A DNA stretch of 64,000 nt from Bacteroidales bacterium UBA3653 (GCA_002373505.1 DFKE01000016.1:21472-85471), one strand, 5' to 3'; positions 1,964 to 50,401 are shown, counted from the first letter of the stretch. Translations and numbers: made by a program. The notes: a model not told the origin generated them from the sequence alone.

Positions 1964-3121
1964 TTGAACATCCGCGTAGGAATATTAACGGCTCCGAAAA
2001 TTGAGTTCGAGCAGCGGGAACACACGTTCGTCTTAAAGAACGTGCGTATTGGCATCGGCTTCCATTGGGACCGCCACGAGGATCAGGAGTTCGCCGGCAC
2101 GCTGGAGATAAAGTCTGTTCCTAACCCCGTTATGCAAGGGGGAAAGCCGTGGCAGGTAGCCATCAACACCATTGATCTGGAAGACTACCTCTGTTCCGTC
2201 ATCTCATCCGAGATGAACGCCGACAGCCCCATGGAGCTGCTCAAGGCGCATGCCGTCATCAGCCGCAGCTGGGCAATACGGGCTATTGCCAATAAGCCGC
2301 ATGCCCAAATGGTAAATGGCAAAATGGTAAATGACTTTGACCTTTGTGCAGACGACCATTGCCAGCGTTACGAAGGACTGCGACGGATGAACGAACGCGC
2401 CGTAGAAGCCGTCCGCGCCACTGCCGGGCAAGTACTGACAAATGAACAAATGGTAAATGGCAAAATGGTAAATGAAATCTGTGATTGCCGTTATCACAAA
2501 TGCTGCGGAGGCAGGACGGAGATCTGGAGCACCTGCTGGGAAGACATCGACGTTCCTTATATTCAGTCCGTCGAGTGCCCGTACTGCAACCCTAAACACA
2601 TAAAGGCTTTGAGTTCACATGGTGAACGGTCTTTCGACTTTCTACTTTCGACTTGTCTCAACGACTACGACCGGGAGACCACGGATTTCCATGACTGGCA
2701 GGTGATCTACACCGCCGAAGAGTTGAGCGACATCATCCGCTCCAAATCCGGTATTGACTTCGGCGAGATCATCGACCTCATTCCTCTCAAACGCGGTCCG
2801 TCGGGACGCATCTGCGAACTGAAGATCGTCGGCACCAAGCATACGGAGATCATCGGCAAGGAGTTGAAGATCCGTCTATGGCTGAGCCGCACCTGCCTCT
2901 ATAGTTCCTGGTTTGACATAGAGAAAAACACACCTGCCCCTTCAGGGGAAGGTCGGGAAGGGGCTTCGTCCTTCGTCCTTCGCGGTCATGGCTGGGGACA
3001 CGGAGCCGGGCTTTGCCAGATAGGCGCGGCTGTCATGGCGGCGGAAGGAAAGACATACGAAGAGATTCTGACCTACTACTACCCCAGCACCACACTAAAT
3101 GACCAAATAGTAAATGACTAA
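1964..3121 (+). CDS. SpoIID/LytB domain-containing protein
   Basis: 385-aa ORF with TTG start. HAVISRSWA and CADDHCQRYEG motifs of the SpoIID amidase-enhancer domain. Follows a GT2 gene, a pairing I recall from Bacteroidales genomes. Confidence 0.75.
   Translation: MNIRVGILTAPKIEFEQREHTFVLKNVRIGIGFHWDRHEDQEFAGTLEIKSVPNPVMQGGKPWQVAINTIDLEDYLCSVISSEMNADSPMELLKAHAVISRSWAIRAIANKPHAQMVNGKMVNDFDLCADDHCQRYEGLRRMNERAVEAVRATAGQVLTNEQMVNGKMVNEICDCRYHKCCGGRTEIWSTCWEDIDVPYIQSVECPYCNPKHIKALSSHGERSFDFLLSTCLNDYDRETTDFHDWQVIYTAEELSDIIRSKSGIDFGEIIDLIPLKRGPSGRICELKIVGTKHTEIIGKELKIRLWLSRTCLYSSWFDIEKNTPAPSGEGREGASSFVLRGHGWGHGAGLCQIGAAVMAAEGKTYEEILTYYYPSTTLNDQIVND
2307..2333 (+). repeat. family A, in-frame in SpoIID gene
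   Basis: aaatggtaaatggcaaaatggtaaatg encodes QMVNGKMVN. Confidence 0.9.
2448..2474 (+). repeat. family A, in-frame in SpoIID gene
   Basis: An identical 27-mer, aaatggtaaatggcaaaatggtaaatg. Confidence 0.9.
2631..2657 (-). repeat. GTCGAAAG family in reverse orientation, in-frame in SpoIID gene
   Basis: ctttcgactttctactttcgacttgtc encodes SFDFLLSTC. Confidence 0.8.
2933..2982 (-). repeat. GC-hairpin element (family P, inverted) plus CTTCGTC x2.5, in-frame in SpoIID gene
   Basis: cctgcccc-ttca-ggggaaggtcgggaaggggc then ttcgtccttcgtccttcg. Encodes PAPSGEGREGASSFVLR. Confidence 0.8.
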
Positions 3122-3147
3122 ATGGTAAATGACTAAATGGTAAATGA
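3096..3147 (+). repeat. family A array (15-nt super-period) spanning the SpoIID stop and the methyltransferase start
   Basis: taaatgaccaaatagtaaatgactaaatggtaaatgactaaatggtaaatga. Stop TAA is at 3119 and ATG at 3137. Confidence 0.9.
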
Positions 3148-4393
3148 TTTAGCCTTGCAGCGCGATAAATACAAACACCTCTCTGACGAAGAATGGCGTT
3201 GGTTCTTGCAGCAGGTAGAGGGGCGCGAACGGACGGCGGACAAACTGCCCACTTTCGCTGCCATCGAGGACTGGTGGTATCCGGTACGCCTGTCTTGTGA
3301 ACAGTGCTCCTCGGAACTCACCGCGCGCTACAAAGCACAGATCGTACTTGGCACTTGGTCAAATGGTACTTGTCTTGACCTCACCGGAGGCTACGGGGTT
3401 GATACTTATTTCCTGTCCGAACACTTTGCCCGCACCGACTACGTAGAGCAGAACGCCGAGCTGTGCCGCATCGCCGAGCATAACTTCGCACTTAGTCCAA
3501 AGTCGAAAGTCGAAAGACAAAAACTCTCTATTGCCGTCCATAACACCATCGCCGAGGATTTCCTTCTCTCCTCCCCCTGTGGGGAGGCCGGGTGGGGTTT
3601 AATCTTCCTTGACCCTGCTCGCCGGGACAGCCACGGAGGCAAGGTTTTCAAGTTGGCCGACTGCACGCCGAATGTAGTGGAGTTGTTACCTGCTCTCTTG
3701 GACCACCTTGCGCCGGACGGACGGATCATGCTCAAACTCTCGCCCATGATCGACATCACCCAGGCGCTCAAAGAGTTGTCTGCCGTCAGCGGTCAGCCGT
3801 CAGACCTCACATGGGATGTGTACATAGTAGCCGTCAAGAACGAGGTCAAAGAGGTCTTATTGTTGTCCCAATGCCTCAAAGCCCCGATAAATGACCATAT
3901 AGTAAATGGTAAAATGGTAAATGACCAAATAATCAAATGCATTGATCTCTCCCGCCCCGAACAGGCGTTCACTTTCACCCGCGAGGAAGAGCAAGCGGCG
4001 CAGCCGCAAATTGTAAATGGTACTTGGTCAAATGGTACTTGGATCTACGAGCCTAATGCCGCTATCCTCAAAGCCGGAGCGTACAAGTTAGTCGGAGAGC
4101 GGTTCGGTTTGCAGAAACTCGACCCGAACACCCACCTCTATATCTCCGACCGGCTTGTGGAGCATTTCCCCGGACGCGTCTGGCGCATAAATGATAAAAT
4201 GGTAAATGCCAAAATGGTAAATGGACAAATGGCGAATGTCCTCTGCCGCAACTATCCGCTTACGCCGGAGCAGCTGAAGAAAAAACTGCACCTCCGGGAT
4301 GGAGGCACAGCCTATGTCATTGGTTGCAGGGTGGCAGGCAAGCCCGTTGTGCTTTTAGCCGAGCGGGTGGAAGATGTCCATGCCGAAGGCTGA
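3137..4393 (+). CDS. class I SAM-dependent methyltransferase (THUMP-like C-terminal region)
   Basis: 418-aa ORF with LDLTGGYGVD (SAM motif I-like) and IFLDPARR. The ATG lies inside a word array, so the exact start is uncertain. Confidence 0.6.
   Translation: MVNDLALQRDKYKHLSDEEWRWFLQQVEGRERTADKLPTFAAIEDWWYPVRLSCEQCSSELTARYKAQIVLGTWSNGTCLDLTGGYGVDTYFLSEHFARTDYVEQNAELCRIAEHNFALSPKSKVERQKLSIAVHNTIAEDFLLSSPCGEAGWGLIFLDPARRDSHGGKVFKLADCTPNVVELLPALLDHLAPDGRIMLKLSPMIDITQALKELSAVSGQPSDLTWDVYIVAVKNEVKEVLLLSQCLKAPINDHIVNGKMVNDQIIKCIDLSRPEQAFTFTREEEQAAQPQIVNGTWSNGTWIYEPNAAILKAGAYKLVGERFGLQKLDPNTHLYISDRLVEHFPGRVWRINDKMVNAKMVNGQMANVLCRNYPLTPEQLKKKLHLRDGGTAYVIGCRVAGKPVVLLAERVEDVHAEG
3344..3374. repeat. 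GGTACTTGG family, in-frame in methyltransferase
   Basis: gtacttggcacttggtcaaatggtacttgtc encodes VLGTWSNGTC. Confidence 0.8.
3495..3521 (+). repeat. GTCGAAAG family, in-frame in methyltransferase
   Basis: gtccaaagtcgaaagtcgaaagacaaa encodes PKSKVERQK. Confidence 0.85.
3571..3598 (-). repeat. GC-hairpin element (family P, inverted), in-frame in methyltransferase
   Basis: ctcccc-ctgt-ggggaggccgggtgggg encodes SPCGEAGWG. Confidence 0.75.
3887..3939 (+). repeat. family A array, in-frame in methyltransferase
   Basis: ataaatgaccatatagtaaatggtaaaatggtaaatgaccaaataatcaaatg encodes INDHIVNGKMVNDQIIK. Confidence 0.9.
4008..4042 (+). repeat. family A word fused to the GGTACTTGG family, in-frame in methyltransferase
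   Basis: aaattgtaaatggtacttggtcaaatggtacttgg encodes IVNGTWSNGTW. Confidence 0.85.
4187..4238 (+). repeat. family A array, in-frame in methyltransferase
   Basis: ataaatgataaaatggtaaatgccaaaatggtaaatggacaaatggcgaatg encodes INDKMVNAKMVNGQMAN. Confidence 0.9.
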
Positions 4394-5200
4394 GGTGAAC
4401 GCGTCCGCTTTTTTCAGAGTTTCTGGAGTGTCCAGTTGCACGCCGCCGCAATGAGGTGACATCAGCAGAATGCGGTCGGAGAGGGCGAGCGCCAGATCCA
4501 GTTCATGCGTAGAGATCAGGATAGTCTTTCCCTGTTCGTGAGCCAGTCTCCGCAAAAGTCTCAGTATCATAATCCGGTGTGGCAGGTCGAGATGAGCGGT
4601 TGGTTCGTCCAGAAGGATAACCGGTGTCCGCTGCGCCAAGGCTTTAGCTATCAGTATGCGCTGTTTCTCTCCGTCGGAATGGCTGTTAAAGAAAGACCGT
4701 CCTATGGACTGTAGGACCGCTCCGCTGTCGTTCACTATAGCATCTTCAAACCCCACTTCGCGCAGACTTTCTTCGATGATCCGTTCGTCCTCTTTCGACA
4801 GCCCGTCCAGAAAAGAGGTATACGGATACCGTCCCATCGCCACGACGTCATGCACCGTCGTGTTCTCCAGCGAGAGCCGCTCCGTCAGAACAAGAGAGAC
4901 CGCGTTGCTGTTAGCCCGCCGCGCTGTTAGACCGGTTCCGCCTGTAAGACTATAAGTGCCGGACAAGGGAGGTTGGAGTCCGGCGAGGGTGCGGATGAGT
5001 GTGGACTTGCCGCAGCCGTTTGGACCGAGCATGCAGACCAACTCACCCTCATAGAGCGAGAAAGTAAGGTCCCGCTGAATAGTCTTTCTGCTTTCGACAG
5101 GCTCTGTCCCGTCACCGGTAACCCGTAACCCGTCACCCGTAACCCCTCTATCGGCATACCCGATGGACAGTTTATTCGTAGAAATAGAGACGTTGTACAC
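4355..5200 (-). CDS. ABC transporter ATP-binding protein (iron-chelate/cobalamin-importer-like)
   Basis: 281-aa ORF with Walker A GPNGCGKST, signature SDGEKQR and Walker B ILLDEPTAHLD. Confidence 0.8.
   Translation of the reverse strand: MYNVSISTNKLSIGYADRGVTGDGLRVTGDGTEPVESRKTIQRDLTFSLYEGELVCMLGPNGCGKSTLIRTLAGLQPPLSGTYSLTGGTGLTARRANSNAVSLVLTERLSLENTTVHDVVAMGRYPYTSFLDGLSKEDERIIEESLREVGFEDAIVNDSGAVLQSIGRSFFNSHSDGEKQRILIAKALAQRTPVILLDEPTAHLDLPHRIMILRLLRRLAHEQGKTILISTHELDLALALSDRILLMSPHCGGVQLDTPETLKKADAFTSAFGMDIFHPLG
5108..5146. repeat. heptamer array CCCGT(C/A)A x5, in-frame in the ABC ATPase gene (minus strand)
   Basis: cccgtcaccggtaacccgtaacccgtcacccgtaacccc. The coding strand gives GVTGDGLRVTGDG. 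Confidence 0.9.
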
Positions 5201-7127
5201 GGCGTGAAACGGAGGTTAGTATTTCGTATGTTATTGTTCCGAGTTTGTCGGCGAGTTCCTGCAGCGTCACATGCTCGCCGAAGATCTCGACGGGGTCTCC
5301 CGGTCTGGCGTCGGTGCCGGTGACGTCTATCATTGCCTGGTCCATGCACACATTGCCTACCACGGGGCACCGTTTGCCCCGGATATAGACCTCTCCGCCG
5401 TAGTTGGAGAAGCGGCGGTCGAAGCCGTCGGCATAGCCGATAGGTATGACGGCTATCACGCGGTCCTCGTCCAGTTTCGTATGGCGTCCGTAGCCGATCG
5501 TCTCACCGGCTTTGACGGTCTTAACGGAGAGGATCGTGGTCTCCAGGGAGCACACATTGCGGAGGCGTGCGCCGGCGAAGGAGAAACCGTACAGACCTAT
5601 ACCCAGACGGCACATGTCGAACTGGTAGTCCGTGAAGCGCTCTATACCTGCAGAGTTGAGGATATGCTTTAAGATAGACCGCCCTTCGGGCTGACAGAAC
5701 ACAGACCGCTCTGCTGACAGACCGGCTACGCCTGACAGACCCTCCTTCAACTCCTCCGCGCAGTCGTCGAAATAGCGTATCTGTTGGAGGGTGAAGTCGT
5801 CGAACTGCGCCTCGTCGCTGCCGGCGAGATGGGAGAAGACAGACGCTACGCGGACGGCTTTGGTCTGCTGCAGTTTGCCGATGAGCCAGGGTATGTCTTC
5901 TTTGTAGAAACCGAGACGGTGCATGCCGGAGTCAATCTTGATATGTATCGGCACGTTCTCCAGCCCTTTGGCTTCCGCGGCGGCGATAACGGTCTTGAGC
6001 GACTGGTGGGAATAGACGTTCGGTTCCAGGTTGTTCTCCAGAATCAGGTCCATCGCCGCCACTTCGGGATCCATGATGATGATGGGCAGCGTGATACCCG
6101 CCTTGCGTAACTCGACACCTTCGTCCGCCACCGCTACTGCCAGGTAATCAACTAATGTACAATTTGACGATGTACGATGTACGAAGGAGTCATTTGCTTT
6201 TTGCAAGGCACGGCTGACCTCGACGCTGCCGGCTCCGTAGGCGAAGGCTTTGACCATACAGGTCAGCTTCGTCTCCGGTTTGAGGAGCGACCGGAAATAG
6301 CGCACGTTGTCCACCAGCGCACTCAGGTTCACCTTAAGAACCGTCTCGTGCGTCTGGCGCAGGATCCGTTCGGCGATGACCTCTTCGTCGTAACCCAGCG
6401 CTCTCATGACGGCGGCGCAGGTGCGCACGTTCTGGTGGGTTGGGTCCTCGATGACCTGCTCGGAGTGGATGAACAGTTTCATCTTCTCCTCCCGTTTCTG
6501 CTCCAGCGACGAGAAGTTCTCGTCGTGCTCGTGTCCGATATAGGTGATCACGCCAATGGTAGGACGGATCATGGGCTCCAGCTTCTCCATCTCTCCGGGC
6601 TGGGAGATGCCTGCTTCGAAGATAGCCAATACCCCTCTCCCTTCTGCACTTCTGCACTTCTGGCCCGTGGCCCGTAACCCGTCACCCGTCACCCGTAACC
6701 CCTCTAGCCCCCAAACGCTCAGCGGCACTCCTATCTGTGAGTTATAGGACTTAGGCGAACGGATGATGTCGTAGTCGTCTTTGAGGAGCTGGTATAGCCA
6801 TTCCTTGACCACCGTCTTGCCGTTGGACCCTGTGATACCGATGACGGTACCTTTGAACTGCGCACGGACATACGCCGCCAGAGCCTGCAAAGCCGCTATG
6901 CTGTCGCCGGTGACGAATGCTCGCACTCCTTTTTCCCGCAACTCAGGGATGTATTTCGCGCCGTCGTCTTTGTCCGTCTTGATAGCAAAGAAGAGCGTGT
7001 GCTCCGCCTTTTCCTTGTCCTGCGCGAGCGTCCTGCTGTCGGTGAGCAGATATCGGATCTCGAGGTCATCCTCTCCTGTAACATCGGCAATAGCCCCTAT
7101 TGCCTTCCTGATTTCAGATAATTTCAT
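5172..7127 (-). CDS. alr: bifunctional Mur-ligase-like (MurF-type) / alanine racemase fusion protein
   Basis: Track ORF 5172..7202 trimmed to Met26 (ATG 7127..7125), because 7149-7180 is a canonical promoter. GITGSNGKT P-loop in the N-terminal half and MVKAFAYGAG PLP-lysine motif in the C-terminal half. Confidence 0.75.
   Translation of the reverse strand: MKLSEIRKAIGAIADVTGEDDLEIRYLLTDSRTLAQDKEKAEHTLFFAIKTDKDDGAKYIPELREKGVRAFVTGDSIAALQALAAYVRAQFKGTVIGITGSNGKTVVKEWLYQLLKDDYDIIRSPKSYNSQIGVPLSVWGLEGLRVTGDGLRATGQKCRSAEGRGVLAIFEAGISQPGEMEKLEPMIRPTIGVITYIGHEHDENFSSLEQKREEKMKLFIHSEQVIEDPTHQNVRTCAAVMRALGYDEEVIAERILRQTHETVLKVNLSALVDNVRYFRSLLKPETKLTCMVKAFAYGAGSVEVSRALQKANDSFVHRTSSNCTLVDYLAVAVADEGVELRKAGITLPIIIMDPEVAAMDLILENNLEPNVYSHQSLKTVIAAAEAKGLENVPIHIKIDSGMHRLGFYKEDIPWLIGKLQQTKAVRVASVFSHLAGSDEAQFDDFTLQQIRYFDDCAEELKEGLSGVAGLSAERSVFCQPEGRSILKHILNSAGIERFTDYQFDMCRLGIGLYGFSFAGARLRNVCSLETTILSVKTVKAGETIGYGRHTKLDEDRVIAVIPIGYADGFDRRFSNYGGEVYIRGKRCPVVGNVCMDQAMIDVTGTDARPGDPVEIFGEHVTLQELADKLGTITYEILTSVSRRVQRLYFYE
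5676..5741 (-). repeat. GGTCTGTCAG composite element, in-frame in alr fusion
   Basis: The plus strand carries ctgacagaac, ctgacagacc and ctgacagacc at 16-20-nt spacing. The coding strand encodes GLSAERSVFCQPEGRS. Confidence 0.85.
6155..6188. repeat. ATGTACGAAGG family, in-frame (antisense orientation) in alr fusion
   Basis: atgtacaatttgacgatgtacgatgtacgaagga. Confidence 0.85.
6632..6704. repeat. composite of a partial GC-hairpin word, CTTCTGCA x2.5 and CCCGTNA x5, in-frame in alr fusion
   Basis: cccctctcccttctgcacttctgcacttctggcccgtggcccgtaacccgtcacccgtcacccgtaacccctc. The coding strand gives GLRVTGDGLRATGQKCRSAEGRG. Confidence 0.85.
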
Positions 7128-7148
7128 TGCTGATACAAAATTTGCATG

Positions 7149-7180
7149 CAAATTTACTGCTTTTTTTTGAGATATGCAAG
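7149..7180 (-). promoter_or_regulatory. Bacteroidota-type promoter for the alr fusion gene (CTTG -33 / TAAATTTG -7)
   Basis: The reverse complement reads cttgcatatctcaaaaaaaagcagTAAATTTGcatg, with a 20-nt spacer. Confidence 0.6.
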
Positions 7181-7387
7181 AAAAAATACACTTTTTTGCC
7201 ATATTTATGTCTTCCTATATTAGTTTGGAGATTTTGCACCCAGCGCGGCGCAACACCCGGCTAACACGAACCGGATCATCATCCGCCGCGGACGGCTTTA
7301 CATCCGGACAGAAAATGCCCTGTACGACATCCTCGGAAACAAACAAAGACCCCTCACCGACGATTACGACTCAAAATAGACTCCGCA

Positions 7388-7431
7388 CCAAAGGATAACC
7401 CAAGGATTCCCCAAGGATAACCCAAGGATAG
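7388..7431. repeat. 11-nt-period array (CCCAAGGATAA x4), intergenic
   Basis: ccaaaggataacccaaggattccccaaggataacccaaggatag. Confidence 0.9.
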
Positions 7432-7558: not shown

Positions 7559-7597
7559 ACAAAAATCGTCTCTCGGGGCGATTTTTGTCTTTTTTAT
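7559..7597 (+). terminator. intrinsic terminator with no annotated gene upstream
   Basis: 10-bp stem acaaaaatcg/cgatttttgt, 10-nt loop, then cttttttat. Confidence 0.6.
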
Positions 7598-7628
7598 TTG
7601 CATATATGCAAAAAAAGCAGTACCTTTG
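7597..7628 (+). promoter_or_regulatory. Bacteroidota-type promoter for dxs (TTTG -33 / TACCTTTG -7)
   Basis: TTTGcatatatgcaaaaaaagcagTACCTTTG with a 20-nt spacer, about 45 nt upstream of ATG 7674. Confidence 0.7.
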
Positions 7629-7673
7629 CGGCGTAAATTGCGTGAGTATGCGCTCACGTGAACGAAAACAAAG

Positions 7674-9662
7674 ATGAATTATCAGTATATCAATAAGATT
7701 GATTCGCCGGCGGATTTGAAGAAGATACCGCTTGAGGAACTGCCGGCGGTGTGTGCGGAGTTGAGACAGTTTATCATTGAGGCACTCAGCAAAAACCCGG
7801 GACACCTTGCTTCGTCATTAGGCGCCATAGAGATCACCGTGGCGCTGCATTATGTGTTCGACACGCCGGACGACAAACTGGTTTGGGATGTAGGGCACCA
7901 GGCTTACGCACATAAGATCCTGACCGGACGGCGCGACCGCTTCCATACCAACCGCCAGTTCAAGGGACTATCCCCCTTTACCAACCCCGCCGAGAGCGAA
8001 TATGACGCCTTCATCGCAGGACATGCCTCTAATAGCATCTCTGCGGCGCTGGGAATTGATATAGGAACAAACCTCACCCCGACCCTCTCCCGAGGAGAGG
8101 GAGGAAAGAAGCGCAACGTAGTAGCTATTATAGGGGATGGAGCGATGACGGGCGGACTGGCGTTCGAGGGGCTCAACAACACCTCGATGGACAAAAACAA
8201 CCTGCTCATTGTGCTCAACGACAACCACATGGCAATCGACCCGCTGAAGGGCGGATTTACCCAGTACCTGGTGGACCTGACGACAAGCGCTACGTACAAC
8301 AAATGGCGCTGGCGGTTCTACCAACTGGCTTCCAGACTCCACCTCGTGGACGAACGTAAGAGACGCGCCATGCTGCGCCGGAACAACAGCCTAAAAGCAG
8401 TGCTCAGCAAACAGCCAAGCAATATCTTTACCGGACTCAACATCCGCTATTTCGGTCCCACAGACGGACATGACGTGGTAGGACTGGTGCGGATCCTGAG
8501 CGAGATAAAGAACCACCGCGGCCCCAAGGTGCTGCATATCATCACCAAGAAAGGCAAAGGCTACGCGCCGGCGGAGAACGACCAGACCGTTTGGCATGCG
8601 CCGGGAGAGTTCAATGTCACTACAGGCGAACGGCAGAGTGACAAACTACAAATCGCAAACGACAAATCACAAACTCCCCCTCTATGGCAGGAGGTGTTCG
8701 GAGAGACGCTTCTGGAACTGGCGAAAAAGAACGGCCGGATAGTAGGAATCACGCCCGCTATGCCCAGCGGTTGCTCGATGAGCATTATGCAGAAAGAGCT
8801 GCCGGAGAGGGTGTTTGACGTGGGTATAGCAGAAGGACATGCCGTCACCTTCAGCGCCGGACTGGCGAAAGCAGGCATGCTGCCGTACTGCAACATCTAC
8901 TCCACTTTCCTACAACGGGCATACGACAACATCGTCCATGACGTGGCGCTGCAGAACCTGCATGTGGTGCTGTGTATCGACCGCGCCGGAATAGTAGGCA
9001 ACGACGGAGCAACCCACCACGGTTTGCTCGATCTGGCATACCTGCGGCCTATTCCGAACATGCAGATCTGCGCCCCGCGTACGGCGGAGGACCTGAAAGA
9101 GATGCTGGCCCTCGCCGAGAACTTGGAAGGACCGGTGGCCATCCGCTATCCGAGAGGAAGGACAAACCCCGCCCCAGCCCTCCCCACAAGGGAGGGAGTA
9201 AAGTACGGCAAAGGCGTGAAGCTGCGAGACGGAGAAGATATTGCCGTCCTCACTATCGGGGCGATAGGAAACACCATGGCGGAAGCGATAGAGTCTGTCA
9301 GTCCGAAGGACGGTCTGTCAGCAAAGCGGTCTGTCAGTGAAACGGTCTGTCAGTCCGAAGGACGGTCCGTGAGCTTTGCGCACTACGATATGCGGTGGCT
9401 CAAGCCTCTGGACGAGGAGATACTGCACGAAGTGGGTAAGAAATACAAGACCATCGTTACTGCCGAAGACGGTATGATTGCCGGAGGACTGGGAAGCGCC
9501 GTATTGGAATGGATGGCTGACCACGGCTATACGCCACGGGTGATCCGGCTCGGAGTGAACGATCAATTTGTAGAACACGGCTCTACCAAAGAGCTCTATC
9601 ATATGTTAAAACTTGACAAAGAAGGACTATGCGAATCGTTATTGCAGGTGCCGGTGAAGTAG
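7674..9662 (+). CDS. dxs: 1-deoxy-D-xylulose-5-phosphate synthase
   Basis: 662-aa ORF with GHQAYAHKILTGRR, IIGDGAMTGG (TPP motif) and RYPRG. Confidence 0.95.
   Translation: MNYQYINKIDSPADLKKIPLEELPAVCAELRQFIIEALSKNPGHLASSLGAIEITVALHYVFDTPDDKLVWDVGHQAYAHKILTGRRDRFHTNRQFKGLSPFTNPAESEYDAFIAGHASNSISAALGIDIGTNLTPTLSRGEGGKKRNVVAIIGDGAMTGGLAFEGLNNTSMDKNNLLIVLNDNHMAIDPLKGGFTQYLVDLTTSATYNKWRWRFYQLASRLHLVDERKRRAMLRRNNSLKAVLSKQPSNIFTGLNIRYFGPTDGHDVVGLVRILSEIKNHRGPKVLHIITKKGKGYAPAENDQTVWHAPGEFNVTTGERQSDKLQIANDKSQTPPLWQEVFGETLLELAKKNGRIVGITPAMPSGCSMSIMQKELPERVFDVGIAEGHAVTFSAGLAKAGMLPYCNIYSTFLQRAYDNIVHDVALQNLHVVLCIDRAGIVGNDGATHHGLLDLAYLRPIPNMQICAPRTAEDLKEMLALAENLEGPVAIRYPRGRTNPAPALPTREGVKYGKGVKLRDGEDIAVLTIGAIGNTMAEAIESVSPKDGLSAKRSVSETVCQSEGRSVSFAHYDMRWLKPLDEEILHEVGKKYKTIVTAEDGMIAGGLGSAVLEWMADHGYTPRVIRLGVNDQFVEHGSTKELYHMLKLDKEGLCESLLQVPVK
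8072..8108 (+). repeat. GC-hairpin element (family P), in-frame in dxs
   Basis: cctcaccccgaccctctcc-cgag-gagagggaggaaag encodes LTPTLSRGEGGK. Confidence 0.85.
8641..8675. repeat. heptamer array ACAAA(C/T)(T/C) x5, in-frame in dxs
   Basis: acaaactacaaatcgcaaacgacaaatcacaaact encodes DKLQIANDKSQT. Confidence 0.85.
9165..9203 (+). repeat. GC-hairpin element (family P, 39 nt), in-frame in dxs
   Basis: aaccccgccccagccctcc-ccacaa-gggagggagtaaag encodes NPAPALPTREGVK. Confidence 0.9.
9293..9368 (+). repeat. GGTCTGTCAG composite element, in-frame in dxs
   Basis: gtctgtcag x4 with spacers tccgaaggacg / caaagcg / tgaaacg / tccgaaggacg. Encodes GLSAKRSVSETVCQSEGRS. Confidence 0.9.
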
Positions 9663-15794: not shown

Positions 15795-16424
15795 ATGCAG
15801 ATCATCGGAATAACAGGCGGCATCGGAAGTGGCAAGTCCACAATCGCGCGGGCGCTCGCAGCCCGCGGGTACGCGGTGTATGACTGCGACAAGGAAGCCA
15901 AACGCATCATCGCCGAGAATAAGGACGTCCAGCAACAGATCATCGAACTGTTAGGAAAAAAAGCATTTGAAGAAGTACCAAGTACCAAGGGACAAAGGAC
16001 CAAGGCTTATAATACCGCCTATGTCGCGCAGTGTGTTTTTGCGGAGCCACAACTCTTGAAGAAACTAAATGAGATCGTCCATCCGGCGGTAAGAGAAGAT
16101 ATAAAAAAAATACGAATTAAAAATAACGAATTAAAAATTATCTTCATCGAATCCGCTATTCTCCAGGAGGCGGGATTAGACACGCTTTGCGATAAGATTA
16201 TTGTGGTTGAAGCGCCGGAGGAAGTGCGGATAGAACGTACTATTGCGCGGGACTATAACGGCGAAGCGACAGAAGAGAATATCAATAAGGTACGCGCACG
16301 CATACAGGCGCAGAAAACATCATCCCCCCTCCATGGGGGGACCGAGAGGGGCTTCATTCTTATTAACGACGGCCGTAAAAGTATCGATGAATTAGCAGAA
16401 GAGATTATCACACTCCTAAGCTAA
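15795..16424 (+). CDS. coaE: dephospho-CoA kinase
   Basis: 209-aa ORF with IGITGGIGSGKST P-loop at the N-terminus. Three in-frame repeat elements. Confidence 0.9.
   Translation: MQIIGITGGIGSGKSTIARALAARGYAVYDCDKEAKRIIAENKDVQQQIIELLGKKAFEEVPSTKGQRTKAYNTAYVAQCVFAEPQLLKKLNEIVHPAVREDIKKIRIKNNELKIIFIESAILQEAGLDTLCDKIIVVEAPEEVRIERTIARDYNGEATEENINKVRARIQAQKTSSPLHGGTERGFILINDGRKSIDELAEEIITLLS
15974..16005 (-). repeat. GGTACTTGG family (reverse orientation), in-frame in coaE
   Basis: agtaccaagtaccaagggacaaaggaccaagg encodes VPSTKGQRTK. Confidence 0.8.
16108..16140. repeat. ACGAATTAAAAAT x2 (14-nt period), in-frame in coaE
   Basis: aaatacgaattaaaaataacgaattaaaaatta encodes IRIKNNELKI. Confidence 0.85.
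16323..16352 (-). repeat. GC-hairpin element (family P, inverted), in-frame in coaE
   Basis: tccccc-ctccat-ggggggaccgagaggggc encodes SPLHGGTERG. Confidence 0.75.
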
Positions 16425-16452: not shown

Positions 16453-16497
16453 GCCATAGGATCACCATAGGATGACCATAGGATCACCATAGGATGA
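16453..16497. repeat. 11-nt-period array (CCATAGGAT(C/G)A x4), intergenic
   Basis: gccataggatcaccataggatgaccataggatcaccataggatga. Confidence 0.9.
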
Positions 16498-16522: not shown

Positions 16523-16555
16523 CTTTTACTATATATACATAGTATATATACTTTT
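16523..16555. repeat. conserved AT-palindrome block, copy 2
   Basis: cttttactatatatacAtagtatatatactttt, with arms at 16530..16538 and 16542..16550. Confidence 0.9.
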
Positions 16556-16570
16556 GATTAGTTATTTTTA

Positions 16571-16601
16571 TTTGCATATATCAAAAAAAATAGTACCTTT
16601 G
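16571..16601 (+). promoter_or_regulatory. Bacteroidota-type promoter for the lipoprotein genes (TTTG / TACCTTTG)
   Basis: TTTGcatatatcaaaaaaaatagTACCTTTG with a 19-nt spacer. Nearly identical to the dxs promoter block. Confidence 0.7.
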
Positions 16602-16645
16602 CGGCCGAAATTGTGTAAAAGCAATAATAGATAAACAACTTATTT

Positions 16646-17588: not shown

Positions 17589-17611
17589 AGGAGTGCTTCG
17601 GCACTCTTTTT
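17589..17611 (+). terminator. intrinsic terminator after the lipoprotein genes
   Basis: gagtgc-ttcg-gcactc followed by ttttt. Confidence 0.6.
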
Positions 17612-17621
17612 GCGTTAATAG

Positions 17622-46509: not shown

Positions 46510-46511
46510 GA

Positions 46512-46549
46512 AAAACCACCCGACCCGACCCTTTAGGGAGGGAGGAATG
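46512..46549 (+). repeat. GC-hairpin element (family P), intergenic
   Basis: aaaccacccgacccgaccct-tta-gggagggaggaat. It sits directly upstream of the terminator. Confidence 0.8.
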
Positions 46550-46580: not shown

Positions 46581-46630
46581 GTGCGGAACGCTCCCAAAAA
46601 AGACTCTATAGCCGTTCACCGGACACTCAA

Positions 46631-46664
46631 CCGTGCCCCCCCCTCGAAGGAGGGAGAAAAGGGG
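46631..46664 (+). repeat. GC-hairpin element (family P variant), intergenic
   Basis: ccgtgcccccccctc-gaa-ggagggagaaaagggg. Confidence 0.7.
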
Positions 46665-46701
46665 ATATCGTACCGCTGTGGTGCCGGTTTCGTTCCGGAC
46701 A

Positions 46702-46735: not shown

Positions 46736-46802
46736 ATATTGAGAGAGGAGGACAGAGGAAAAGCAGGAAAAGGGCAAGGGAGGGACGAAAAAAGCACAAA
46801 GA

Positions 46803-46933: not shown

Positions 46934-48823
46934 GTGAAGAAAATTATATCTATTCTGATGACGGCGATGATCGGGCTGCCACTGGCGAACGGAGCCGTAA
47001 AAGTACACACTATCGGTGACAGTACGATGGCCGAGTACGACGAGAACACCACCGACAAGCGCGGCTGGGGAATGTATCTGGGTTCGTTCTTCGACCCGGC
47101 TTTTGTGACCGTGAACAACCGCGGCAAATCAGGCGCAGACACCCGCAGTTTCTACACCGGAGCCGCTTATTGGCCGAGCATGAAGAGCCAGATGAGCGCA
47201 GGGGATTACCTCATTATTCAGTTTGCACACAACGACGAGGGTACCGTTACCAACGGAATGGATAATTTAGAGTACGCTGAATATTGTCAGGCGAAGGGTT
47301 TGCCGGCTCCTACGGACACGCGCGGGACGAACCCGCAGACCACTTACCGTGATTTTCTGCGCCTGTTCATTGACGAGGCACGTGAGTTGGGCGTCAACCC
47401 GATTCTGGTAGGTCCGATATGCCGCAAGTATTTCAGCAACGGCAATATCCGGCGCAACGGTCAGCACGACTTGGGTGACAAATTCAGCAAAATAGAGAAC
47501 GGCGTTCTCTATGAGAACCAGAGCCTTCCTGCCAATGACTCGTCCATGAGTTACGTACATGCCATGCGCGAGGTGGCGAAAGAGAAGAACGTGCCGTTCC
47601 TGAACCTGACGGAAGCAACCCGTCAGATGTATCTAGAGTACGGCGAGGCACAATGCACGCAGCTGCTGTTCTGCAACGGCGACAACACGCACACGAATGC
47701 CATGGGCGGCAACCTGATTGCCCGCCAGGCAGCGCAGATGATGAAAGACGCAGGTATATTGGCTGAACATATCAATATTCCGACATCCATCACTGCCAAC
47801 CCGACATCGATAGAGATCGGCGAGACGTACAGCGGCGTAGCGCAGAACAAAGAGTTTTTGCTGACGGGATTCGGTCTGGAGCCCGCGAGCGGCACGGTAT
47901 CGCTTCATGCGACAGGCGCGCTGACGATCTCGACAGACAAAGAGAACTATGACAAGACCGCTTCCGTGGATTACGCCGGAAGCACCTTGTTCCAAAAGAT
48001 CTACGTGCGCGCTATCTATGAGAACGCAGGCGAGAACAAAGACTCTGTCGTAGTTACTTTCGGCGAGAACAGTGTGTCCGTCCCCGTGACAGCAAGCGTC
48101 ATCTCTCTGGAAGGCGGCAGCGCCGTAAGCGCAACCTGGACGGTGAACGCCAAACCGATGCCGGAACCGGAAATAACAGGCCCGATCAGCGCAGCGTTCA
48201 CGATGAACAACATGGCGTATATCGATTATAACAGCAGTAGCAAGAATTATTTCACCGACGGCGAGGAGACCGGTCTGACCTTGGGACGTTTCCATAACTC
48301 CGCAGACGGGAGTAGCCGCACTCCTTGGCCCGCAGGCGAGATAGACGAGAACGCGAGCCGCTATCTGGATTTCGCCATCACCGCTCCTGCTGCCATGGAG
48401 GTCCGTATCACCAAAATCTCGATGGCTATTGGAGCCGACGGCACATCCACCATGTGTTACCATATCAACACCGGATTCGGCGACGGTTTCACCGGTGTGA
48501 AGACCATTGCCGAGAGACAACACATGGCCAACCGTGTAGTGGAGCACGCTGATATTACTCCCACCCTGACTATCCCCGCCGGGGAGACGCTGCACGTACG
48601 GATCCTGCCGTGGCATGACCTCGGAGAAGAGAAGGACAGCAAGTACATCTGTCTGCGCAGCGTGAAGATAGAGGGTCAGGCTTTCGAGCCGGGCGAAGAG
48701 GGAAACCTCTCCCCGACCCTCCCTTCAAGGGAGGGAGTAAAGATACTCCGGGACGGTGTGCTGCTGATTGAGCAGAACGGCGTGGTTTACAATGCGCAGG
48801 GCATGGTTTTAATACGAAAATAA
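46934..48823 (+). CDS. SGNH/CE12-like (rhamnogalacturonan acetylesterase-like) protein with C-terminal extension and T9SS-like tail
   Basis: 629-aa ORF with GTG start. KVHTIGDSTM (GDS block), GKSGADTRSF, DNTHTN. C-terminus is LRDGVLLIEQNGVVYNAQGMVLIRK. Confidence 0.7.
   Translation: MKKIISILMTAMIGLPLANGAVKVHTIGDSTMAEYDENTTDKRGWGMYLGSFFDPAFVTVNNRGKSGADTRSFYTGAAYWPSMKSQMSAGDYLIIQFAHNDEGTVTNGMDNLEYAEYCQAKGLPAPTDTRGTNPQTTYRDFLRLFIDEARELGVNPILVGPICRKYFSNGNIRRNGQHDLGDKFSKIENGVLYENQSLPANDSSMSYVHAMREVAKEKNVPFLNLTEATRQMYLEYGEAQCTQLLFCNGDNTHTNAMGGNLIARQAAQMMKDAGILAEHINIPTSITANPTSIEIGETYSGVAQNKEFLLTGFGLEPASGTVSLHATGALTISTDKENYDKTASVDYAGSTLFQKIYVRAIYENAGENKDSVVVTFGENSVSVPVTASVISLEGGSAVSATWTVNAKPMPEPEITGPISAAFTMNNMAYIDYNSSSKNYFTDGEETGLTLGRFHNSADGSSRTPWPAGEIDENASRYLDFAITAPAAMEVRITKISMAIGADGTSTMCYHINTGFGDGFTGVKTIAERQHMANRVVEHADITPTLTIPAGETLHVRILPWHDLGEEKDSKYICLRSVKIEGQAFEPGEEGNLSPTLPSREGVKILRDGVLLIEQNGVVYNAQGMVLIRK
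48704..48742 (+). repeat. GC-hairpin element (family P, 39 nt), in-frame in the CE12-like gene
   Basis: aacctctccccgaccctccc-ttcaa-gggagggagtaaag encodes NLSPTLPSREGVK, immediately before the C-terminal tail. Confidence 0.9.
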
Positions 48824-49614: not shown

Positions 49615-50363
49615 TTGAAGTAAAAGATGTAGTCAAGAGTTTTGACGGGAATGTGGTGCTGAACCACGTGAGTACCGAGATGCGGGACGGCGAGGTGAAC
49701 ATGATCATCGGCCAGTCCGGTTCCGGCAAGACCGTGCTGATGAAAAGCATGATCGGTCTGCATGCCGTGGACAGCGGACAGATATTGTATGACGGCCGCG
49801 ATCTGGCGGAGATGCGGAGCAAAGATATCCGGATGCTTCACCGCGAGGTAGGAATGCTGTTCCAAGGCAGCGCGCTGTTCGACTCCATGACGGTGATGGA
49901 GAATGTGCTGTTTCCGATGGAGATGTTCTCTCATAAGAGCCGCGAAGAGATGCGTGAACGTGCAGAGTTCTGTTTGCGGCGTGTAGAGATGCCGGAACGG
50001 GTATGGAACTTAATGCCGAGCGAGATCAGTGGCGGTCAGCAGAAACGTGTAGCTATTGCCCGCGCGATCGTTTTGGAGCCGAAATATCTGTTCTGCGACG
50101 AGCCGAACTCGGGTTTGGATCCGAAGACGAGTCTGGTGATTGATGCCTTGATTCAGGATATCACGCGGGAATATAATATCTGCACGATCGTCAACAGCCA
50201 TGACATGAACTCGATTATGGAGATAGGCGACAATATCGTGTTCCTCAAAGGCGGCAAGAAAGAATGGCAGGGCAGCCGACATGAGATCATGAATAGCAAC
50301 AACGAAGCGCTGAATGATTTCGTTTTTGCAAGCGAGTTGTTTAAGAAGATAAAAAACAAATAA
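49611..50363 (+). CDS. mlaF: MlaF-type ABC transporter ATP-binding protein
   Basis: 250-aa ORF with GQSGSGKT, ISGGQQKRVAIARA and LFCDEPNSGLDP. Confidence 0.85.
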   Translation: MIEVKDVVKSFDGNVVLNHVSTEMRDGEVNMIIGQSGSGKTVLMKSMIGLHAVDSGQILYDGRDLAEMRSKDIRMLHREVGMLFQGSALFDSMTVMENVLFPMEMFSHKSREEMRERAEFCLRRVEMPERVWNLMPSEISGGQQKRVAIARAIVLEPKYLFCDEPNSGLDPKTSLVIDALIQDITREYNICTIVNSHDMNSIMEIGDNIVFLKGGKKEWQGSRHEIMNSNNEALNDFVFASELFKKIKNK

Positions 50364-50401
50364 CCCCTCCCCGACCCTCCCCTCAAGGGAGGGAGATAAA
50401 G
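50363..50401 (+). repeat. GC-hairpin element (family P, 39 nt), intergenic after mlaF
   Basis: acccctccccgaccctccc-ctcaa-gggagggagataaag. It starts on the last base of the TAA stop. Confidence 0.9.

Follow-up and report, generated by a model that had tools for sequence, protein, structure and literature searches.

A dispersed Bacteroidales repeat, probably of the BoxC/PIT/TMECO kind, residing in frame inside genes

Introduction

A short G/C-rich repeat occurs in the 64,000-nucleotide stretch of DNA from Bacteroidales bacterium UBA3653 analysed here (the window), both between genes and in frame inside genes. What kind of element is it, and how could it come to be tolerated in coding sequence? 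The original prediction, made from the sequence, took it for a plain hairpin of roughly 39 nt without known equivalent in Bacteroidota, modelled it on REP elements moved by a RAYT transposase, and likened it to the palindromic elements of Rickettsia. Our analysis indicated that the repeat has a further conserved block and that it shares its sites with other short repeats.

Results

Architecture of the repeat

The repeat unit is 36–40 nt long, G/C-rich, and dispersed through the Bacteroidales genome (Paludibacteraceae). On the strand given here two C-tracts 1 nt apart are followed, after 2 nt, by the C-rich stem arm, a loop of 3–6 nt and the G-rich stem arm. The two C-tracts upstream of the hairpin form a third block, which the original prediction overlooked; because of them the opposite strand reads C-stem, loop, G-stem 1, 2–3 nt, G-stem 2. 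The last of these repeats G-stem 1 in mirror image and has A or T facing the A of G-stem 1, so that one strand is predicted to be able to form a hairpin plus a third strand, that is, a purine-motif intrastrand triplex. The plain hairpin is therefore not the whole element, and the conserved third block points to the potential intrastrand triplex class, to which the BoxC/PIT/TMECO-type motifs belong. Hairpin-only or G4 folds of the Bacteroidales variant may also form, a G-quadruplex or i-motif being the alternative fold of the repeat.

An intrastrand triplex motif (ITxF) has been defined as three blocks in succession on one strand, namely a C-stem, the G-stem that pairs with it in Watson-Crick fashion and another G-stem running antiparallel to that one, with triads G.G-C, A.A-T or T.A-T, stems of 6–15 nt with at most one mismatch, and loops of 1–6 nt (Holder et al. 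2015, PMC4666352). Our own implementation of these rules, with stems of 7–8 nt, found six copies in the window and none in 20 shuffles. These six conform to the G/C-rich class II intrastrand triplex motif; the copies in SpoIID and at 46510 and 46622 failed the same scan. The matches start as follows.

8073, 9168, 48707 and 50365, minus strand: three-block matches
3569 (methyltransferase gene, MT) and 16323 (coaE), plus strand: three-block matches

The exact pattern CCCTCCC-N3-8-GGGAGGG was present three times in the window, as against 0 in 100 shuffles. Comparison of copies showed that the third-strand base opposite the A-T pair of the stem was T in 143 cases, A in 82 and C in 4 (copies within one genome are not independent), and that the A of G-stem 1 was matched at the mirror position of G-stem 2 in 191/201, 9/11 and 18/21 cases in the three stem registers. 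The 5′ flank CCC[A/T], though outside the search pattern, was found in 119 of the 136 cross-phylum matches listed. All three blocks stay in register across differing stem variants, including two variants at the single MT site, and hairpin pairing reached 99.2%, with five double-sided changes. The predicted stability of the hairpins was −14 to −17 kcal/mol, with unremarkable folding z-scores of −0.6 to −2.8, and the reading frames of the core are mostly without stop codons. No Rfam family was found on the element, either at the gathering threshold over the whole window or at E ≤ 1 over 46.4–50.5 kb. Literature searches with the core 13-mers returned only eukaryotic or G4-chemistry papers, and those on Paludibacteraceae repeats and Bacteroidetes heptamer repeats found nothing relevant.

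Copies in the window

The window contains four intact copies, two sequence variants of the same architecture, one degenerate copy and two decayed intergenic copies, besides a fragment.

8069..8108, + strand: intact copy in dxs variable site 1, read as NLTPTLSRGEGGK
9164..9203, + strand: intact copy in dxs variable site 3, the domain II/III linker, read as NPAPALPTREGVK
48703..48742, + strand: intact copy in the GDSL-lipase (CE12-like) gene, read as NLSPTLPSREGVK
50361..50401, + strand: intact intergenic copy, best covariance-model score (56.3 bits)
3562..3602, − strand: variant copy in the PG_1098/THUMP-like methyltransferase (MT) gene, antisense to the gene, SSPCGEAGWG
16318..16356, − strand: variant copy in coaE, antisense to the gene, SSPLHGGTERG
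2928..2968, − strand: degenerate copy in SpoIID, antisense to the gene, read as TPAPSGEGREGA; covariance-model E 0.11
46510..46549, + strand: decayed intergenic copy, 63% identity to the reference copy; covariance-model match at 46513, E 0.26
46622..46665, + strand: doubtful, heavily decayed intergenic copy, 68% identity; covariance-model match at 46641, E 3.5, 3′ part only
46775..46801, + strand: fragment like the 3′ arm only, CAAGGGAGGGACGAAA, from the repeat grouping

A covariance model built from 59 cross-phylum copies was run on the window with filters off. It gave four strong matches, at 50359, 9162 and 48701, which are all seed members, and at 8067, which is independent (E 5e-8). All nine copies described as clear in the original prediction are present, with the in-frame peptides it gave, but only about four are clear. 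Repeat-family grouping put six + strand copies of the window into one family (8069, 9164, 46510, 46622, 48703 and 50361). The window copies are singletons, those at 46510 and 46622 lying in direct orientation.

The copy at 8069..8108, whose reverse strand is CCCTCTCC-TCG-GGAGAGGG-TCG-GGGTGAGG, had no mismatch in the triplex scan and is the most TMECO-like copy of the window. That at 48703..48742 lies in a linker immediately ahead of a C-terminal sorting-domain-like tail, in a product assigned to Lipase_GDSL_2 (Pfam). The minus strand of 50361..50401 carries the perfect three-block motif GGGAGGG-TCG-GGGAGGG, and the copy opens with the TAA stop codon of an MlaF-like ABC ATPase gene. The blocks of the MT copy are CCTCCCC / GGGGAGG / GGGTGGGG (covariance-model E 0.006; triplex scan 3569–3597, + strand). 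Strain L129 has the same copy at this site, and L128 has a different three-block variant, TCCCCCC / GGGGGGA / GAGGGGGG. The coaE copy, with blocks TCCCCCC / GGGGGGA / AGAGGGG, was recognised by the three-block scan at 16323–16351 on the + strand and not by the covariance model (E above 10). The 46510 copy starts right after the stop codon of an upstream secreted-protein gene. A terminator role was considered and rejected: the terminator scan did not call the element terminator-like, the 50361..50401 copy included, and a separate canonical terminator-like hairpin stands at 46549–46575, 3′ of the 46510 copy.

Insertion and replacement at variable sites

The intragenic copies keep the frame and sit at indels or linkers of orthologues or of E. 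coli DXS. They lie in loops and in linkers between domains, can point either way relative to the gene, use more than one frame, and yield peptides of 8–13 residues rich in Pro, Ser, Thr and Gly. The loops are presumed to be exposed, as judged from alignment to solved DXS sequences alone; an AlphaFold2 model of the window DXS (47-sequence alignment) had a mean pLDDT of 36 and was unusable.

The original prediction gave its three best copies as exactly 39 nt, or 13 codons. This holds at dxs site 1, where the gain is exactly 13 residues relative to orthologues reading 'GGER/GGDK'. The SpoIID copy is an insertion of 33 nt relative to the L128 orthologue, and the coaE site is 24 nt longer than in L129, with L127 and L128 holding other cassettes there. 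The segment at dxs site 3 equals the E. coli DXS linker in length and is therefore a replacement, not a net insertion; close strains have other cassettes at this site. Likewise, orthologues of the CE12-like gene have unrelated segments of the same length, e.g. IESLQPSEVRSQK, VENVQGDNVQCTK and VENMAFPSHEGKVAK, which again indicates replacement. Orthologue alignment thus showed either insertion or replacement at equal length. Conservation of the segments in orthologues had been named beforehand as the result that would speak against the repeat; the alignments showed them absent or replaced, and so this objection fails.

Two further variable sites of dxs have no hairpin in the window.

8641..8674, + strand: dxs variable site 2, a 14-nt/heptamer-type repeat here, KLQIANDKSQ
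9284..9374, + strand: dxs variable site 4, GGTCTGTCAG-type repeats here

In other strains site 2 contains the hairpin, NLSPTLPSREGDPV, and site 4 contains it in sense in L128 (NLSPTLPSREGG) and in antisense in L129 (SSLEGRSGGVS). The four hypervariable DXS sites therefore hold the hairpin or one of several heptamer-type repeats, depending on the strain. In L177 a composite of the hairpin and an identical 52-nt nested insert is present at two dxs sites. The repeat, which the original prediction took alone, is one of several short families at the same hypervariable in-frame sites.

DNA alignments showed that the DNA flanking the cassettes is mosaic between strains. The protein P0015 has 97.8% backbone identity to the window DXS, yet 0/4 cassettes in common with it. 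Recombination may reshuffle cassettes at the DXS sites, and a purely rapid de novo turnover is tempered by these mosaics, which carry cassettes between lineages. Among the same-strain contigs L001–L006, which are 99.2–100% identical, no de novo insertion was found and the hairpin copies were without polymorphism. In four filled/empty comparisons the empty allele had 4–9 nt resembling the G-rich end of the element, as noticed by eye in this small sample. Copies at five unrelated sites have the same ends and loop (5′ AAAC, loop YTCAA, 3′ KAAAG). The repeat is copied as a unit to unrelated sites, with its lineage-specific ends (AAAC...KAAAG) and loops kept.

Distribution in Paludibacteraceae and other taxa

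In Paludibacteraceae DNA, 10 of the 12 strong covariance-model matches (83%) were inside called genes, as are three of the four intact window copies. A search with a core of 22 specified bases found at least 120 genomic stretches over many phyla, including Bacteroidota, so that the repeat is specific neither to this genome nor to its phylum. Part of the matches in high-GC genomes may be due to chance, tens being expected in 596 Gb by our estimate, and two 'ORFs' carrying matches in such genomes had no Pfam support. The host genes in other taxa encode MetH, PBP1, a P-type ATPase, xanthine dehydrogenase, UvrA and DbpA, with the matches mostly between Pfam domains. Inverted pairs, 50–190 nt apart, were found in 9 of the 120 loci listed, all in other taxa. 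Loops and flanks are lineage-specific, e.g. the Prevotella 3′ flank CTTGATATGC. In the syntenic Paludibacteraceae region the canonical copies lie on one chromosomal strand at about 11 sites versus 1, even within genes of the opposite strand; GC skew follows gene orientation there and does not resolve the replication direction of the copies.

Discussion

Origin of the intragenic copies

We consider it probable that the repeat is of the BoxC/PIT/TMECO kind and that it is a tolerated in-frame passenger. The element would be DNA of a selfish or neutral kind that does nothing for the host proteins, and selection would purge copies that break frame or fold, so that loop-resident copies of 3n length remain. 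The structure itself may drive spread and turnover: replication would stall at a stable hairpin or triplex, the nascent end would switch template to another genomic copy via purine-rich microhomology, and the switch would write or overwrite a short patch, leaving the colonised site fragile. Homologous recombination between strains would then reassort the alleles. Bacteroidota ribosomes do not use Shine-Dalgarno pairing, so that the GGAGG-rich arm would be harmless inside ORFs and intragenic residence could be tolerated in this phylum. The copying step by template switching is offered tentatively. The fairly discrete ends and constant unit length fit enzyme-mediated insertion at least as well, and the co-resident heptamer repeats are not G-rich, so triplex-induced stalling cannot be the whole story.

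A transposition model would account for some of these features. It supposes a REP/REPIN-like or IS200/IS605-derived non-autonomous element, moved as ssDNA by a RAYT/HUH tyrosine transposase encoded elsewhere, as the original prediction had it. The hairpin, the conserved flanking bases, the discrete unit and the lack of terminal inverted repeats beyond the hairpin suit an HUH-type element. So does the finding that inspection by eye of the copies and of the four filled/empty pairs showed nothing like a target-site duplication other than perhaps AAA. Inverted doublets in some other taxa also agree with it, and a replication-coupled or ssDNA mechanism predicts the one-strand bias, although gene orientation and the restriction of the sample to one region confound this bias. 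However, the 49 main ORFs of the window contain no Y1/HUH or other transposase domain in Pfam, precomputed assignments covering the first 20 kb as well, which bears out the earlier statement that no RAYT/IS200 gene is present in the window, and the precomputed Pfam families of genes in the Paludibacteraceae loci compared include no transposase. Copies in the lineage are singletons and not doublets, and mostly intragenic, whereas REPs are nearly all extragenic (PMC3116915). Neither the 2015 survey nor three decades of BoxC work connected these repeats with genes of mobile elements (PMC4666352). Having found no positive support for the REP/RAYT model, we regard it as unlikely. The motifs might instead arise in place, by quasi-palindrome or mirror-repeat 'correction' and slippage on native purine-rich codons, with no movement at all. 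Empty alleles of CoaE site 2 do contain GGAGCCGGA, which lies within the filled allele GGGGGAG-CC-GGAGGGGG, and several stem variants have a common architecture, not a common sequence. Origin in place is nevertheless improbable: five unrelated sites share details of ends and loop that are not structural, the composite carries an identical 52-nt insert at two sites, loops and flanks are lineage-specific, and template switching gives inverted or direct repeats, not mirror repeats.

Two functional readings were also weighed. REP elements are known to stabilise upstream mRNA, and this precedent, together with the stable hairpins and the two intergenic copies placed directly after stop codons, would suit a functional RNA or a regulatory signal, acting for instance in termination, attenuation or mRNA stabilisation or as a site of translational pausing or bypass. 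But the hairpin has no U-tract and the 46510 copy is followed by a separate canonical terminator, folding z-scores are unremarkable with no Rfam match, and copies lie in both orientations inside genes. Strict frame preservation argues for read-through and not bypass, and PIT/TMECO has neither promoter nor terminator activity in E. coli (PMC4666352). A regulatory signal is accordingly a very remote prospect. Selection for a Pro/Thr-rich linker peptide (NxSPTLPSREGV), convergently recruited into loops, would agree with the location of all sites in linkers or loops and with the sense frame from the Asn codon AAC being the commonest (five sites). This frame bias is explained by a TAA in the 3′ tail and a TGA in the loop, which close the other frames. 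The same DNA is also used in antisense (SLEGRSGG), in another sense frame (SPQPSPQGRE) and between genes, conservation is at the nucleotide level across phyla with third codon positions included, and close strains have unrelated peptides at the same sites. We find a selected peptide module scarcely credible.

The passenger reading may be extended. It is conceivable, though rather doubtful, that Paludibacteraceae and perhaps many Bacteroidota have interchangeable in-frame mini-cassettes (hairpin, heptamer repeats and nested small elements), actively written and overwritten at fixed permissive sites of housekeeping proteins by a dedicated copying process. If this is true, the mini-cassettes would be ultra-small mobile DNA that is mainly intragenic, not tolerated debris, with the triplex or G4 as a recognition or initiation signal.

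Significance

BoxC/PIT/TMECO has been a puzzle for some 30 years, being abundant, highly conserved and unstable between strains, and no function, way of moving or influence on genes is known for it. The Bacteroidales lineage offers a richer natural experiment, since the motif lies in essential genes (DXS, CoaE and MurF-Alr; MetH and PBP1 in other taxa), where frame, length and the tolerance of the loop hold each copy under a readable constraint. At the resolution of single codons, gain, loss, inversion, nesting and replacement can be followed in hundreds of metagenomic alleles, and this richness makes repeat copying and non-B-DNA-driven hypervariability directly testable. The cassettes make proteins look more diverse than they are and disrupt the clustering of orthologues at 90% identity; the full-length members of one DXS cluster span 645–675 aa. 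Intergenic copies may, as we expect, seed spurious 'hypothetical proteins'. The cassettes also mark insertion-tolerant loops, possibly useful for protein engineering. If intragenic tolerance is linked to Shine-Dalgarno-free translation, this trait of Bacteroidota would have an unexpected effect across the whole genome.

Comparison with known systems

Earlier work on BoxC/PIT is reportedly that of Bachellier in the 1990s and of Hoyne/Maher in 2000. BoxC, PIT and TMECO are one E. coli family of potential intrastrand triplex repeats, characterised in 2015 (Holder et al. 2015, PMC4666352). The class having been described since the 1990s (PMC4666352), the supposed lack of a known equivalent was wrong for the element itself and right for its in-frame residence in Bacteroidota genes. 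This intragenic, in-frame location is what is new, and we found no published description of it. Both repeats have a C-stem, a loop of 3–6 nt, G-stem 1, 2–3 nt and a G-stem 2 in mirror image, where T or A faces the A. Both are about 36–37 nt long, with many dispersed copies, single or in inverted pairs, no transposase found in association with either, and loci that vary between strains to an unusual degree. In MG1655 TMECO is intergenic without exception, and it has been reported from 262 proteobacterial genomes (PMC4666352), while most copies of the Bacteroidales repeat are intragenic and translated. The triplex has been measured for TMECO only: it was shown in vitro, with NMR favouring triplex over G4, and in vivo DMS footprinting found none (Holder et al. 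2015, PMC4666352). The stems differ, CCCTCCC(C) in Bacteroidales as against CCCTCNCCC in TMECO, and so the literal TMECO pattern, CCCTCNCCC N3-6 GGGNGAGGG N3 GGGNGAGGG with at most one mismatch, is absent from the window copies; the best, that of dxs site 1, has three mismatches and the others five. The dxs site 1 copy matches E. coli at 32/36 nt, 20/20 in the G-rich half, in 6,256 places of 3,824/5,426 genomes. These matches are intergenic, and with a short query and an E-value of 0.3 they may reflect common descent or convergence. An E. coli locus sharing GGGAGAGGGTCGGGGTGAGG exactly with this copy adjoins an exact TMECO on the opposite strand.

The Rickettsia palindromic elements (RPEs) of Ogata et al. 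2000 reportedly add translated peptide segments at surface positions that tolerate them, occur in non-coding DNA as well, and are said to be AT-rich, about 100–150 bp long and confined to Rickettsia. To our knowledge, they have no triplex or G-tract architecture and do not swap with other repeats at fixed sites. The analogy is a fair one as to behaviour, both elements being inserted with the frame preserved and absent from orthologues. The Bacteroidales unit, unlike RPEs, is GC-rich and 36–40 nt long, and sequence kinship is not expected. REPs, too, are imperfect palindromes, short and GC-rich and with hundreds of copies, but they form extragenic doublets flanking a RAYT gene, and the window shows none of these; inverted doublets of the repeat occur in some other taxa. 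In SBW25, 14 of 1,067 REPs overlap genes (PMC3116915), and our copies are neither extragenic as a rule nor arranged as inverted doublets of fixed spacing. A MITE is not indicated either, the only inverted repeat being the internal stem of 7–8 bp and the window containing no IS.

Several features recall the cyanobacterial SDRs, which, according to what is reported from Elhai et al. 2008 and Mazel et al. 1990, are 21–27 nt long, seemingly mobile, nesting and essentially intergenic, the same genomes being reportedly rich in STRR heptamer tandem repeats. As in those genomes, different repeat families occupy the same position, nesting occurs and heptamer repeats are present; the phylum and the sequences are different, and SDRs are not described as in-frame protein cassettes. 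The Neisseria pilE G-quadruplex, G3TG3TTG3TG3, is reported to promote local recombination and gene conversion (Cahoon and Seifert 2009). The G-rich strand of the Bacteroidales repeat, G3-4 A G3 YY G4 W G3-4, sets its four G-tracts apart by loops of the same 1-2-1 pattern, and a G4 is a possible fold here. The pilE G4, by contrast, stands at one dedicated locus, where its role in pilin variation is defined, and lacks the complementary C-arm that the Bacteroidales repeat has.

Copies of the element in the window

The best-supported reading of our results is that the element is a BoxC/TMECO-type repeat which acts as a tolerated in-frame passenger of genes. Hairpin sequences were found at the positions of all nine copies that the original prediction had called clear, but support for them was uneven, and only four were strong matches when we ran, without filters, a covariance model for which 59 copies of many phyla had been used. 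The copy in coaE was not detected in the window by this unfiltered model. The matches were as follows:

8067, + strand: intact copy at dxs variable site 1 (8069..8108), strong independent match, E 5e-8
9162: strong match
48701: strong match
50359: strong match
3562-3602, − strand: copy in the PG_1098/THUMP-like methyltransferase gene (MT), E 0.006
2928-2968, − strand: copy in SpoIID, E 0.11
46513: E 0.26
46641: E 3.5

A repeat search of the window grouped six plus-strand copies as a single family, and the pattern CCCTCCC-N3-8-GGGAGGG occurred three times in the window and in none of 100 shuffles. Each intact copy folds to a G/C hairpin of 7–8 bp (−14 to −17 kcal/mol), with modest z-scores against shuffles. 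In the model-fitted alignments 99.2% of the stem was paired, with five double-sided changes.

Three-block architecture and distribution

A scan of GTDB with one genome per species, using the pattern CCCCRRCCCTCCC-N3-6-GGGAGGGAG, found this core in at least 120 genomic stretches. Among the matches listed, about 87 were from Bacteroidota, including Prevotella, Bacteroidaceae, Paludibacteraceae, Prolixibacteraceae, Cytophagales, Saprospiraceae, Flavobacterium and Mucilaginibacter; the other taxa listed included Sphingomonas, Kingella, Cardiobacterium, Burkholderiales, Chloroflexi, Oceanithermus, Desulfamplus and Gastranaerophilales. The core was also present in 47 viral contigs. Some of the matches in high-GC genomes may have arisen by chance, of which we estimate tens in 596 Gb.

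The five bases 5′ of the core, which the pattern leaves free, were nCCC[A/T] in 119 of 136 cases among the matches listed. The unit therefore consists of four C-tracts followed by a G-arm. Read on the opposite strand, the order is C-stem, a loop of 3–6 nt, G-stem 1, 2–3 nt, and G-stem 2, which mirrors G-stem 1 (for example CTCCCTCCCCTTGAGGGGAGGGTCGGGGAGGGG). The plain hairpin of the original prediction had overlooked this third block, the upstream C-tracts being G-stem 2 of the opposite strand. A scan by ITxF-like rules recovered six copies, namely the four intact ones and the variants in MT and coaE, whereas shuffled sequences gave none. The blocks stay in register in the stem variants (C-stem/G-stem 1/G-stem 2):

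CCCTCCC type: CCCTCCC/GGGAGGG/GGGWGGG
MT: CCTCCCC/GGGGAGG/GGGTGGGG
coaE: TCCCCCC/GGGGGGA/AGAGGGG
dxs site 1: CCCTCTCC/GGAGAGGG/GGGTGAGG

At the MT site, two different three-block variants occupied the same position in different genomes. In all fetched DNA, where copies are not independent, the A of G-stem 1 was mirrored at the right position of G-stem 2 in 191/201, 9/11 and 18/21 copies of three stem registers. Among 229 mirrored bases there were 225 T or A and four C. This preference matches what the pairing rules of a triplex require. A G-quadruplex could also be formed by the four G-tracts with their 1-2-1 spacing.

One 8 kb Prevotella stretch contained five exact-pattern copies of the core and a sixth by the covariance model. 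Its core copies were conserved on either side, with CTTGATATGCTTTAAGG at the 3′ flank and a C-rich stretch at the 5′ flank, and therefore the core in Prevotella seems to be a piece of a longer lineage-specific repeat.

Hypervariable sites of dxs

The identification of dxs was upheld by the Pfam domains DXP_synthase_N, Transket_pyr and Transketolase_C and by an E-value of 3e-148 to E. coli DXS (2O1S). An alignment of 120 DXS orthologues (83–98% identity) revealed a protein that is nearly invariant except at four short hypervariable sites. Depending on the strain, each of the four was occupied by the hairpin or by another genome-wide short-repeat cassette, such as KLKIKN from AATTGAG-type heptamers, ESRKSKVE from GAAAGTC, QFTMHNAQCT, MDNGQWTM, DRCADRTQTA and VTGYGLPVT, among others. 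At site 1, 27 sequences had only GGER/GGDK, where the window protein has 13 more residues (NLTPTLSRGEGGK). A predicted junction peptide of DXS is, for example, ...GRTNPAPALPTREGVK.... The hairpin at site 4 was sense in one related stretch (L128) and antisense in another (L129). One orthologue shared none of the four cassettes of the window protein, although the two are 97.8% identical elsewhere. Compared with E. coli DXS, sites 1, 2 and 4 carry insertions of 8, 8 and 21 residues, while site 3 is as long as the domain II–III linker of the E. coli enzyme. In dxs (7674-9662), each site held over 10 unrelated peptides among strains with 89–98% backbone identity, and full-length DXS members of one 90% cluster ranged from 645 to 675 aa.

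The window DXS belongs to a 90% cluster in which the members with a name are "MAG: Paludibacteraceae bacterium", and proteins identical to it are encoded by several metagenome contigs from ENA and Logan (SHIW14-1_SAMN0214423x, SRR873457). SHIW14 is a sheep rumen study. Judging from sample and record names (RGIG/RUG MAGs, SHIW14), the DNA probably comes from a bacterium of the Paludibacteraceae (Bacteroidales) that lives in the gut of ruminants.

Copies inside other genes

The identities of SpoIID, MT (PG_1098/THUMP-like) and CoaE were also confirmed, and the gene previously described as CE12-like is a GDSL lipase. Comparison with orthologues bore out insertion or replacement in dxs, SpoIID, coaE and the lipase. 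The SpoIID site is 33 nt longer than in L128 and the coaE site 24 nt longer than in L129, with other cassettes at the latter site in L127 and L128, whereas the lipase shows an equal-length swap in the linker preceding its C-terminal tail. Two neighbouring secreted-protein genes (46420-46509, 48743-48823) share a tail, ...NGVL(F/L)IE(K/Q)NGV(L/V)YNAQG..., that resembles a C-terminal domain of type IX secretion, and the lipase hairpin lies in the linker immediately before this putative domain.

In related genomes, further copies were found inside ABC ATPase, MurF-Alr, GDSL, MBOAT and CoaE genes, read in sense frame A (NLSPTLPSREGV), in sense frame B (SPQPSPQGRE) or antisense (SLEGRGGEGF). In Paludibacteraceae DNA, 10 of the 12 strong model matches lay inside called genes. 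Most frames of the core are open, and the frame bias arises because the TAA of the 3′ tail and the TGA of the loop shut the rest. Pfam confirmed in-frame copies in the following genes:

MetH: between the pterin-binding and B12-binding domains
PBP1: between the transglycosylase and transpeptidase domains
P-type ATPase, xanthine-dehydrogenase-like protein, UvrA and DbpA: in-frame copies
Pyridine-nucleotide oxidoreductase: in-frame doublet

Seven of the eight Pfam-confirmed cases were from Bacteroidota and one from Desulfamplus; gene-internal in-frame copies are thus not limited to Paludibacteraceae. Pfam support was absent for two copy-bearing "ORFs" of high-GC Proteobacteria. Translation in Bacteroidota is independent of Shine-Dalgarno sequences, and the tolerance of copies inside genes might be linked to this.

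In a Saprospiraceae MAG (L035, 1327-1483), an inverted pair formed a REPIN-like doublet of ~130 nt, in-frame in a pyridine-nucleotide-disulphide oxidoreductase gene. In a Bacteroidaceae MAG (L125, 5066-6748), the element stood at the junction of UDP-GlcNAc 2-epimerase and DUF559 (Vsr-like endonuclease). Here the epimerase reading frame is broken by DUF559, perhaps itself an in-frame insertion of another type.

Copying and turnover

Five sites unrelated to one another carried canonical copies with the same 5′ A|AAC, the same YTCAA loop and the same 3′ KAAAG, none of which is needed for the fold, and other lineages had loops and flanks of their own. Both observations argue for copying within lineages. 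We tentatively prefer template switching provoked by the structure, or short-patch conversion, to an enzyme model, although we consider even this less likely than not. Copying by a RAYT-type enzyme, as for the REP elements originally named as a parallel, appears unlikely. No transposase domain was present in the window, for which the lack of a RAYT/IS200-like gene had been stated originally. In the syntenic region, canonical copies were nearly all on one strand, including those within opposite-strand genes. In four filled/empty comparisons, a small sample judged by eye, a few bases of the empty allele resembled the purine-rich end of the element, which is suggestive of microhomology.

An identical 52-nt insert was found at the same position in two hairpin copies of L177 (dxs sites 3 and 4), and in L128 at site 3 only. 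This shows either target-specific nesting or short-tract conversion. The nested element GAGTTCTACGGACGGCCACCGGCAGTCCGATCGAGCAGAGCTCTTCACCCGC, of 52–54 nt (L177, 4615-4666 and 4789-4840; L128, 11486-11539), takes the place of the 5′ stem arm and reads in-frame as GSSTDGHRQSDRAELFT; no further copies of it were found in the fetched DNA. DNA alignments of strains showed mosaic flanks around cassettes, and therefore inter-strain recombination carries cassettes along with their surroundings. At 19300, between the window and L002 (contigs 99.2% identical), a patch of the signal-peptidase gene had an AAGTACC-heptamer cassette in place of the AATTAAAAAT-type one, with diverged flanks, and may be a recent recombination import.

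Other short repeats in the window

Short tandem arrays of period 7 (or 14/15) were extraordinarily dense, with 44 in 64 kb by TRF (for example 508-540, 740-772, 935-970, 1326-1358, 2307-2333, 3096-3147, 5108-5145, 6671-6701, 21435-21459, 25805-25844, 33232-33260 and 50753-50786). Unit families were AAATGGT, TAATTCG/GAATTGA, CCCGTAA, ATGTACG, AGTCGAA and GTCAGCC. Of these arrays, 31 were within main ORFs and translated (such as QMVNGKMVND in SpoIID and MT), 11 ran across gene ends and two were clearly intergenic. The 15-nt unit TAAATGACTAAATGG was found at gene junctions (3096-3147, 24331-24364, 26484-26519, 28463-28503), where it contains both the stop codon (TAA/TGA) that ends the upstream gene and the ATG with which the downstream gene begins. 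Several proteins start with MVND... or finish with ...VND*, and this repeat may make new gene ends or move existing ones.

A conserved intergenic block of ~50 nt, TTTATTTGCATATATGCAAAAAAAGCAGTACCTTTGC, was located 5′ of several genes (7579-7629, 16553-16603, 17604-17654, 43932-43982, 46802-46836) and was inverted at 7139-7196 and 43641-43698. It is probably a common Bacteroidota-type promoter/leader region or a further dispersed repeat. Tandem repeats of 11 nt occupied intergenic DNA both upstream of dxs (7387-7430, ACCCAAGGATA x4) and downstream of coaE (16454-16495, CCATAGGATCA x3.8).

Comparison with BoxC/PIT/TMECO

The E. coli repeat named BoxC, later PIT and later TMECO, has the form CCCTCNCCC N3-6 GGGNGAGGG N3 GGGNGAGGG and has 3,610 occurrences across 262 genomes of Proteobacteria (Holder et al. 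2015, PMC4666352). In vitro, CD and NMR showed its single strand to fold as a triplex of the purine-motif type (class II) with a Tm of 70–82 °C, and NMR favoured this triplex over a G-quadruplex, but no triplex was seen in vivo by DMS. TMECO had no promoter or terminator activity and no transposon link, occurred frequently as inverted pairs, varied more between strains than control loci, and in MG1655 was "always located intergenically" (PMC4666352).

The dxs site 1 copy matched intergenic E. coli DNA at 32 of 36 nt, with 20/20 in the G-rich half, in 3,824 of 5,426 complete genomes; at the locus inspected, an exact TMECO lay ~60 nt away on the other strand. By the ITxF-like rules the window element has the same three-block layout as TMECO, although its copies fail the literal pattern by at least three mismatches. 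A triplex has been measured for TMECO and is predicted for the element. The original prediction, in which no equivalent was known for Bacteroidota, thus does not hold for the element class, which is already known. As far as the literature we found shows, what is new is the multi-family cassette sites, the breadth within Bacteroidota, and residence inside genes: TMECO is intergenic in MG1655, whereas the element lies mostly inside genes in Paludibacteraceae DNA.
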